Position numbers and translations under genes: made by a program. Positions 3,373 through 4,365 of a stretch of DNA of 64,000 nucleotides are shown in pieces (within the stretch, counting starts at the first letter, position 1; each line of letters opens with the position of its first letter). The notes under the pieces were generated by a model. It was not told the origin of the DNA. It saw nothing but the letters and a program-made list of their open reading frames with translations, and ran no database searches. The DNA comes from an uncultured Ignavibacteria bacterium (GTDB taxonomy: Bacteria; Zixibacteria; MSB-5A5; WJJR01), in assembly GCA_964440935.1 (NCBI GenBank), contig CAYTTY010000012.1, forward strand, positions 12,873-76,872, in the 5' to 3' direction.

Positions 3373-4365
3373 TTATCGACCGAACAGCCACCCGAAGAGG
3401 CGGCTAAACAGGGATCGATTTTTGCGCGTACGAACGCGTAGGCTACGCTGGGGCGCATAAATCGCCCGAGCAGACGTTGACGGTTGTGACGACGGTGACG
3501 ACGACGGCGCAGATGCAGCCGGAGCCTCCGGCGGTGTATCGACAGGTGACTGAACGGGCGTTGCGTGTTCGGTTGGCTGCTGTTGAACAACCGGTTGCTC
3601 CCGTTGGGGAACCGCTCGCATGCGTGGGATCGGACCCGAATCCGGCTTCGGCGCTGTGGAGGGGGACGATGTCGGTGTCGGAATCCCGCTGACGGGCGTG
3701 GATGACAACGACGCACCGCCGGCGACGCCGACAGGTTCGCCTTCCGTGCCGCCGGTTTGCGCCGCCGGACTGCCGACCGATGTCTTCTTCTTCGTGTGCT
3801 CCAACACGATCTTGGTGATGCGCTTGAGCGTGTCGAACACGCCGGTGCCTTTGACCGCGACCGCCTCCGTATACGGAAATTGATGCGGATTCAGTTCGCG
3901 TTCCAATTCCTCGATGGACACGACATCGGGCAGGTCGCGTTTGTTGTACTGGATGACGATGGGGATGTCGTGAATGTCGATGCCATTTTCTTTCAGATTC
4001 TCGTACATGTTCGTCAGCGACTCGACGTTTTCGTCCATCTTGGACCGCTGCGAGTCGGCGACAAAGACAATCCCGTCGACACCGCGCAGCACGAGTTTGC
4101 GCGTGGCGTTGTAGAAGACCTGGCCGGGAACCGTATATAATTGAAATTTCGTGGCGAACCCGGCGATGTCACCGACACTGATCGGCAAGAAGTCAAAGTA
4201 AAGCGTGCGGTCGGCCTCGGTGGCAAGACTGATCAGGTCGCCGCGCGACTTCGCCGGTACGCGCTCGTGCACGTACTGCAGATTGGTCGTCTTCCCGGAG
4301 AGTCCGGGTCCATAGTAGACGATTTTGCAACTGATTTCGCGAAACGCGTAGTTGATGGTGACCAT
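3373..4365 (-). CDS. mglA: MglA-family Ras-like small GTPase. A core of ~195 aa is followed by a ~135-aa Pro/Ser/Thr/Ala-rich low-complexity C-terminal extension.
   Basis: N-terminus MVTINYAFREISCKIVYYGPGLSGKTTNLQYV...TVPGQVFY...IQYNKRDLP matches Myxococcus MglA almost motif-for-motif: P-loop GPGLSGKT, and a TVPGQ switch II instead of the Ras DxxGQ. No stop occurs until 3375. The tail ends ...RSLFSRLFGWLFGR. Confidence 0.85.
   Translation of the reverse strand: MVTINYAFREISCKIVYYGPGLSGKTTNLQYVHERVPAKSRGDLISLATEADRTLYFDFLPISVGDIAGFATKFQLYTVPGQVFYNATRKLVLRGVDGIVFVADSQRSKMDENVESLTNMYENLKENGIDIHDIPIVIQYNKRDLPDVVSIEELERELNPHQFPYTEAVAVKGTGVFDTLKRITKIVLEHTKKKTSVGSPAAQTGGTEGEPVGVAGGASLSSTPVSGIPTPTSSPSTAPKPDSGPIPRMRAVPQREQPVVQQQPTEHATPVQSPVDTPPEAPAASAPSSSPSSQPSTSARAIYAPQRSLRVRTRKNRSLFSRLFGWLFGR

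Follow-up and report, generated by a model that had tools for sequence, protein, structure and literature searches.

A long C-terminal tail on MglA of Zixibacteria and other lineages, a probable membrane tether

Introduction

Does the small GTPase MglA, in some bacteria, carry a membrane anchor of its own? The question is raised by a gene that we call mglA-long, found on a 64,000-nucleotide (nt) stretch of DNA from an uncultured Ignavibacteria bacterium (GTDB lineage Bacteria; Zixibacteria; MSB-5A5; WJJR01; assembly GCA_964440935.1, contig CAYTTY010000012.1, positions 12,873 to 76,872 of the forward strand); this whole stretch is here called the window and is numbered from its first letter. 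MglA is the model for a Ras-like switch defining the leading and lagging poles of bacteria. To our knowledge, mechanistic work on it has all been done with the soluble protein of ~195 amino acids (aa) from Myxococcus, Thermus and Bdellovibrio. The product of mglA-long continues in frame beyond the MglA fold, and a first-pass annotation of the window had proposed that this tail is translated and ends in a basic amphipathic helix that could take the GTPase to the membrane or the pole. From the comparisons reported here we consider it probable that the tail is a membrane tether of MglA; pilus control as the output of the tethered protein is a further proposal, in which we have less confidence. 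The tailed form, which turns out to be common to whole lineages, is relevant both to bacterial polarity and to small-GTPase evolution.

The mglA-long gene and its G domain

The gene, its G domain, its junction with the next gene and that gene, mglB, are as follows.

3373..4365, minus strand: complete mglA-long coding sequence, with ATG start, 330 codons and a TAA stop at 3373-3375 (open reading frame list and sequence)
3778..4365, minus strand: G domain, residues 1-196 (phmmer against the PDB MglA structures 5ymx, 6h17 and 3t12, E = 2e-78 to 1e-73)
3359..3375, minus strand: mglA-mglB junction, with TAA at 3375-3373, the Shine-Dalgarno sequence GGAGG at 3372-3368, a 6-nt spacer and the mglB ATG at 3361-3359 (read from the sequence)
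2879..3361, minus strand: mglB, 160 aa, Roadblock/LC7 GTPase-activating protein (Pfam Robl_LC7, E = 6e-12; NCBIfam MglB, E = 1.3e-25)

The translation agrees with the protein sequence quoted in the first-pass annotation (SPAAQTGGTEGEPVGVAGG ... RKNRSLFSRLFGWLFGR). Its distance of 11 nt from the tailed mglA to mglB is exact when stop, Shine-Dalgarno and ATG are read from the sequence; these 11 nt, GGAGGTGGCCG, start with the Shine-Dalgarno GGAGG, and no promoter-like site was found in the junction region. The tail itself had been placed at 3373-3790 and given ~135 aa. An in-frame tail is indeed present there, yet that span also takes in the stop codon and the last four G-domain codons (residues 193-196, part of helix alpha-5); the tail proper is 134 aa, residues 197-330, encoded at 3376..3777 of the minus strand. 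No second MglA copy was found within the 64-kb window. Homologues of mglA-long carry in the databases only the labels 'GTPase', 'hypothetical protein' or 'signal recognition particle receptor subunit beta'.

Group-1 MglA has been defined by its P-loop, an intrinsic arginine finger beside the G2 threonine, TVPGQ and NKxD, in a census that retained only sequences of at most 240 aa (Wuichet and Sogaard-Andersen 2015, PMC4316618). Residues 3-193 of the window protein align without gaps to the Myxococcus xanthus MglA structures 5ymx, 6h17 and 6hjh (E ~1e-78; for 5ymx, E = 2.4e-78), residues 1-189 align to Thermus thermophilus MglA 3t12 (E = 1e-73), and the last helix of the G domain, alpha-5, reaches residue 196 in the AlphaFold2 model. 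Identity of the G domain to myxobacterial MglA is 58-62% (tblastn). The G1 P-loop (GxxxxGK[ST]) reads GPGLSGKT at residues 19-26 and is invariant in both of our homologue alignments; likewise present and invariant in the alignments are TVPGQ of G3 (residues 78-82, in place of DxxGQ) and NKRD of G4 (141-144). R53 and T54, which are the intrinsic arginine finger and the G2 threonine, do not vary among 120 homologues, and both pair with the corresponding residues when aligned with M. xanthus MglA. An adjoining MglB partner, also a mark of Group 1, lies 11 nt downstream; MglB itself matches M. xanthus MglB (PDB 6izw_B) with E = 3.7e-36 over residues 5-159, the C-terminal helix region included.

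Because the G domain matches solved structures at E = 2e-78 and keeps the invariant catalytic residues, we take it as bona fide MglA, and judged by its sequence it is an ordinary and catalytically complete one. At 330 aa the window protein exceeds the single-domain limit of 240 aa used in the MglA census; by every other sequence criterion it is an MglA, and that limit is an operational cut-off, not a biochemical criterion. The cut-off probably explains why tailed forms are undescribed in the census.

Reading frame of the tail

Might the tail be an artefact, a frameshift or read-through behind which the true protein stops after the G domain? The tail is of low complexity, its codon-position GC content (0.66/0.68/0.62) is uninformative on frame, and a second sense frame is also stop-free across it. 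The flat GC and the second open frame both follow from the Pro/Ala/Ser-rich composition, and an open frame taken alone is weak evidence for the tail. Since GC and stop counts were uninformative, synonymous and non-synonymous changes were instead compared with a relative at 80% protein identity, from a Zixibacteria metagenome-assembled genome (locus L081).

The three parts of the protein differ in this comparison. Synonymous and non-synonymous codon changes number 84 and 6 in the G domain, 23 and 51 in the linker that makes up most of the tail, and 7 and 1 in the last 35 codons, where the differences fall 1/0/7 on codon positions 1/2/3 (binomial P ~4e-4, our own estimate, in which neutral changes are assumed to be 25% synonymous). 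This 7:1 synonymous excess and the 1/0/7 pattern indicate that the C-terminal end is read in the MglA frame and is under purifying selection. The sequencing frameshift that had been suspected was not borne out: the sole indel against L081 at the DNA level is 6 nt long, lies in the linker and keeps the frame, and an identical gene is present in an independent Logan assembly of run SRR7048227 (locus L082), which excludes a frameshift peculiar to the source assembly. The best 120 homologues among 5.8 billion proteins are all long (297-514 aa) and, across their varied lengths, come back to the same kind of terminal motif in frame. The mglB Shine-Dalgarno sequence and ATG, moreover, follow straight after the mglA-long stop.

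From these comparisons the tail is real and translated in the MglA frame, with its C-terminal end under purifying selection, and the claim of a translated tail holds; the artefact explanation, to which we give a next to negligible probability, is refuted by the comparative data. Tandem DNA repeats were rejected as the cause of the low complexity, there being none in the tail beyond an 18-nt duplication. An alternative open reading frame at 3321..3716 of the minus strand (131 aa, Arg-rich), which covers the tail in the other sense frame, was rejected since the substitutions against L081 fit the MglA frame, and we judge it a by-product of composition.

Anatomy of the tail

The tail was partitioned using column statistics over the 120 homologues and an AlphaFold2 run with that alignment. 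Conservation falls to noise across a long linker and comes back over residues 302-330.

3463..3777, minus strand: linker, residues 197-301, Pro/Ser/Ala/Thr/Gly/Val-rich and slightly acidic, unconserved in sequence and length
3430..3462, minus strand: conserved motif 1, residues 302-312 (IYAPQRSLRVR), with the family pattern hydrophobic-x-x-[AP]-Q-[KR]-S-[LT]-[RK]-[VI]-[RK]
3376..3429, minus strand: polybasic stretch and C-terminal amphipathic helix, residues 313-330 (TRKNRSLFSRLFGWLFGR), from hydrophobic moment, charge, conservation, AlphaFold2 and substitutions

Columns of the linker have an entropy of ~3 bits, compared with 0.1-1.3 for those of the G domain, and total tail length among homologues ranges over ~100-321 residues. 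The linker is modeled by AlphaFold2 as coil, with no predicted secondary structure and a predicted local distance difference test score (pLDDT) of ~50-60, and is thus predicted to be disordered.

The remaining 29 residues form a conserved C-terminal module, composed of a Q-[KR]-S-L-[RK]-V motif, an Arg/Lys run and a short amphipathic helix. Within motif 1, S308 is conserved in 98% of homologues, V/I302 in 76%, Q306 in 74% and R310 in 70%. Ser308, whose codon is at 3439..3441 of the minus strand, is better conserved than any residue of the amphipathic helix. The QxSLRV motif with Ser308 may be a site of partner binding, modification or phosphorylation beside the polybasic run.

The candidate helix motif comes after the coil linker and spans residues 318-330, the very end of the 330-residue protein; the terminal amphipathic sequence of the window protein is SLFSRLFGWLFGR / RSLFSRLFGWLFGR, and the protein ends in FGR. 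The last 35 aa contain runs of Arg and Lys and have a net charge of +9. L323, F324 and W326 are each conserved in 87-88% of the homologues, and AlphaFold2 predicts helix at residues 320-323. For the 11-residue segment RSLFSRLFGWL the helical hydrophobic moment is 0.63; the same computation gives 0.41 for the Escherichia coli MinD sequence and 0.61 for E. coli FtsA. Most of the homologues behave similarly: 101 of the 120 have a moment >0.5 and a charge of at least +3, 17 others combine lower moments (0.36-0.49) with charges of +6 to +10, and the remaining 2 could not be scored. In all 120 the sequence closes with a polybasic stretch and an aromatic/hydrophobic motif. Residues 196-330 have neither a cysteine nor a CAAX box for lipidation, and the window protein has no transmembrane (TM) segment above the Kyte-Doolittle threshold. 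Both predictions that the first-pass annotation had suggested as checks came out in its favor, the end of the protein scoring strongly amphipathic next to its +9 basic stretch and the linker being predicted as low-confidence coil.

Relatives and lineage distribution

Relatives were collected by a scan of one genome per GTDB species, which gave 80 MglA loci (referred to below by L numbers), each open reading frame being read to its stop. Long tails with a polybasic run and a short amphipathic end were found in Zixibacteria, Ignavibacteria, Fibrobacterota/Chitinivibrionales, one Terriglobales genome and one unclassified bacterium, with KRGFFKRLFGLK and KKKKRFFLFRWF as typical endings. The E. coli MinD membrane-targeting sequence is KGFLKRLFGG (PMC5471200). 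A Zixibacteria homologue (L007) ends in PGFLKRLFGNK, which holds an exact GFLKRLFG, and Ignavibacteria homologues end in KRGFFKRLFG[LIV]K. GFFKRLFG is present in the relatives L003, L005, L010 and L015. The likeness to the MinD sequence may be convergent.

Planctomycetota have another kind of end. Six homologues of 311-514 aa (L012, L031, L033, L034, L042, L052) have exactly one predicted TM segment, at the extreme C-terminus, preceded by basic residues and placed after an equally long linker; by their sequences these would be tail-anchored small GTPases. In the homologue of a Brocadiia locus (L022) an amphipathic PLFKKFKKFL takes this place. In Myxococcota, Desulfuromonadales, Bdellovibrionota, Acidobacteriota and Gemmatimonadota MglA has no tail and the canonical length of 189-209 aa. 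Two Nitrospirota MglA homologues (L064, L067) of 349-388 aa have a different, charged and helical-looking tail, one ending in KRKWFRFI; these may be a third kind of extension, and they branch with the tailed group in a crude tree. That tree, built by neighbor joining from the G domains and without support values, separates the short forms, the tailed forms of Zixibacteria/Ignavibacteria/Fibrobacterota, and the Planctomycetota forms.

The survey thus bears out that extended tails occur in MglA homologues, in the best 120 and in related genomes. Judged by sequence, Zixibacteria, Ignavibacteria and Fibrobacterota have the tailed MglA as their usual form, and Planctomycetota have a variant with a transmembrane end. 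The first-pass annotation had described the tail as belonging to a single gene; the tail is there, yet it is no peculiarity of one gene and is the standard form across lineages. A profile of the C-terminal 38 positions, searched against 1.84 billion representatives, gave 8 matches, of which 7 are pieces of this family that lack their N-terminal part; the representatives were clustered at 50% identity, which hides full-length members, and the result is no measure of family size. At that search sensitivity the C-terminal module does not appear to be a common cassette of other families. We found no account of an MglA with a tail or membrane anchor in open-access papers and bioRxiv, and a lineage-wide membrane-anchored form of MglA is apparently undescribed.

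Membrane tethering and alternative functions

Three independent lines of sequence evidence support membrane targeting, the role that the first-pass annotation had proposed for the basic amphipathic end: the amphipathic score of that end beside its basic stretch, the MinD core GFLKRLFG in relatives, and the TM segment that replaces the helix in Planctomycetota. The strongest argument is that two chemically different anchors occur at the same place in homologous proteins, from which we infer that membrane attachment is the function kept by selection. The helix would insert its Leu/Phe/Trp face into the cytoplasmic membrane with the basic residues binding anionic lipid head groups, on the pattern of MinD and FtsA, and helix and basic run together would hold MglA at the inner face of that membrane. 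The disordered linker of ~105 residues would serve as a leash, on which the G domain could range tens of nanometres from its anchor. Anchoring would be expected to be independent of nucleotide state because the helix is ~120 residues from the fold, unlike the case of Arf, discussed below.

Several points weigh against a membrane tether. Membrane binding is inferred for every member of the family. The helix of the AlphaFold2 model is only four residues long and of moderate confidence, and Gly325 and Gly329 could lower helicity (the MinD sequence also has Gly). The very high conservation of S308 and QxSLRV is unexplained by lipid binding and suggests a protein partner or a modification site. The neighbor-joining tree is too crude to tell one origin of the anchor from several, and the link to pili is drawn from gene neighborhood alone.

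The conservation of motif 1 would also suit a module that mainly docks a co-encoded partner (the TPR protein, a Roadblock protein, MglB or PilB; see Gene neighborhood), the linker then being a leash to that partner. We consider this distinctly unlikely. In its favor, S308 at 98% and the Q-[KR]-S-L-[RK]-V motif are conserved over the 120 homologues and unneeded for lipid binding, TPR and extra Roadblock proteins are conserved beside tailed MglA, and TPR domains commonly bind short peptides; on the other side, the last 12 residues in relatives are near-identical to the MinD membrane-targeting sequence, and the TM segment of Planctomycetota, standing in place of the helix, is hard to square with a peptide that docks at a specific protein interface. 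Both roles may quite possibly coexist, motif 1 binding a partner and the helix lipid. The net charge of +9 in the last 35 residues, with its Arg/Lys runs, would agree with a basic C-terminus that serves as a degradation tag or binds a polyanion other than lipid (DNA, RNA or polyphosphate), and so holds or regulates MglA off the membrane. This is less probable still: the invariant feature is the terminal hydrophobic Leu/Phe/Trp face and not charge alone, the likeness to MinD and the TM segment that Planctomycetota have instead both favor the membrane, and the only hint of nucleic acid in the neighborhood is an adjoining ComEC gene.

Comparison with known systems and implications

The closest comparison is with the Group-1 MglA of M. 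xanthus and T. thermophilus, which has the same G domain, P-loop, Arg53, TVPGQ and NKRD and an adjoining MglB. Canonical MglA is 189-209 aa long, tailless and described as cytosolic and polar, whereas the window protein has 134 extra residues with an anchor-like end. MinD and FtsA likewise have a short amphipathic helix with basic flanks at the extreme C-terminus. Relatives of the window protein have the GFLKRLFG core of MinD, and its own variant, SLFSRLFGWLFGR, keeps the spacing of two hydrophobic, two other and two hydrophobic residues. In contrast to MinD and FtsA, the helix here, with its putative membrane binding, is on a Ras-superfamily GTPase and not on a ParA/MinD ATPase or actin homologue, with a linker of 100-320 residues between fold and helix and with the QxSLRV motif preceding it.

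The hypervariable region of K-Ras4B is a disordered, variable C-terminal segment that provides a polybasic and farnesyl membrane anchor. Ras and Rho are likewise small GTPases with a variable disordered C-terminus that ends in a polybasic anchor and gives two-dimensional localization; tailed MglA differs in having no CAAX box or tail cysteine, in an amphipathic helix or TM segment as the apparent anchor instead of a lipid, and in a linker five to fifteen times longer, and nothing suggests that the tails share ancestry. Rag-Ragulator combines a GTPase with several Roadblock/LC7-fold proteins at a membrane, to which Ragulator is anchored as a Roadblock scaffold. In the window one Roadblock-like protein has four predicted TM segments; the likeness is one of logic only, that Roadblock assignment being under the Pfam cut-off and LAMTOR2 a weak match. 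Arf/Sar1 and Asgard Arf GTPases bind membrane via an amphipathic helix of their own (PMC11914678). The Arf helix is N-terminal, coupled to the switch and exposed only in the GTP state, and that of tailed MglA is C-terminal and ~120 residues from the fold.

Were MglA anchored in this way, localization of the switch in the tailed lineages, several of them large phyla that have been little studied, need not rely on polar landmarks such as RomR/RomX, and the switch may use two-dimensional diffusion and capture, as eukaryotic Ras and Rho do. The tailed protein would then be a case of convergent, or possibly ancestral, membrane anchoring in the Ras superfamily. A wider proposal, which we put forward tentatively and think rather unlikely to be right as a whole, is that membrane-anchored MglA is an old and widespread alternative design of the polarity switch, in which GTPase, GTPase-activating protein and Roadblock proteins form a membrane platform steering pilus motors, a counterpart in logic of Ras anchoring and Rag-Ragulator, with the Ser308 motif perhaps an electrostatic, phosphorylation or partner switch that releases the anchor. 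For surveys the implication is a practical one: those that filter small GTPases by length have a blind spot for tailed forms.

Gene neighborhood

Besides mglB, the genes around mglA-long are as follows.

7218..8390, minus strand: PATAN (DUF4388/PatA_N) protein, 390 aa, head of the cluster (Pfam DUF4388, E = 3.9e-31; precomputed label PatA_N), position conserved
6823..7221, minus strand: 132-aa protein with three predicted TM segments (Kyte-Doolittle), position conserved in seven related loci
5729..6631, minus strand: TPR protein, 300 aa (Pfam TPR_19, E = 1.9e-12, and TPR_14), position conserved
4740..5714, minus strand: 324-aa protein with four predicted TM segments (Kyte-Doolittle) and a weakly Roadblock-like C-terminal domain
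4399..4737, minus strand: a second protein of Roadblock/LC7 type, 112 aa, encoded by the next gene upstream of mglA-long (Pfam Robl_LC7, E = 3e-16)
1116..2810, minus strand: pilB, ATPase for extension of type IV pili, next gene downstream of mglB (Pfam T2SSE, E = 2.7e-136, and MshEN)
1..1016, minus strand: pilT, pilus retraction ATPase, running past the window start (translation and tblastn)

Together these make a nine-gene order at 1..8390 of the minus strand: PATAN/DUF4388, 3-TM protein, TPR, 4-TM/Roadblock-like protein, Roadblock, MglA-long, MglB, PilB, PilT. The order is common to L001-L011, L015 and L081 wherever the contig reaches far enough. PilB keeps its position, with 62-71% identity, in L001-L011 and L015, and PilT has 74-79% identity (tblastn) and the same position in L001-L010 and L015, except L007, where the contig ends first; L081 continues with pilC after pilT. 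The 112-aa Roadblock protein upstream of tailed MglA has 50-62% identity in loci of the Zixibacteria/Ignavibacteria type and ~30% in five Planctomycetota loci (L012, L022, L031, L052, L053), and mglB is downstream in six Planctomycetota loci; near short MglA a Roadblock homologue was found in one locus only (L041). Gene order at mglA itself is also reversed, since mglB follows tailed MglA (window 2879..4365), inside the PATAN/TPR/Roadblock/PilB/PilT cluster, and precedes short MglA, as in Myxococcus, in the compared loci L016-L080.

Two of the proteins have domains that are harder to place. The C-terminal domain of the 4-TM protein scores E = 0.0022 (18 bits) with Pfam Robl_LC7, under the curated cut-off, and E = 0.24 with dynein roadblock in PDB; the protein is conserved in position in L001-L003, L005-L011 and L081, with no match in L004. 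The C-terminal 130 aa of the TPR protein (5729..6130, minus strand) are conserved and gave no Pfam or PDB sequence match; a Roadblock fold had been suggested for them by eye, found no support from any tool and was set aside.

Comparison of these loci shows that the tailed GTPase belongs to a distinct conserved module, which also encodes the motors of the type IV pilus and two proteins integral to the membrane. The nine-gene cluster has the appearance of a self-contained unit for the control of type IV pili, a compact one that ties the MglA switch to PilB/PilT. In Myxococcus MglA-GTP acts on pili via a TPR effector, and in cyanobacteria PATAN regulators act on pilus motors; with this background the neighborhood is coherent with pilus control. 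A tethered and leashed G domain could reach MglB and the Roadblock proteins, one of which is embedded in the membrane, as well as the TPR and PATAN proteins and the PilB/PilT motors. Switching between GTP and GDP would then take place in two dimensions, at the membrane, setting where or when type IV pili extend and retract, with MglA-GTP promoting engagement of the pilus motors at particular membrane sites and MglB ending it.

Directly upstream of the PATAN-MglA-pilus cluster, in the window as in L081, lies a gene for the ComEC/Rec2 competence channel (8467..10782, minus strand; Competence and DUF4131 domains).

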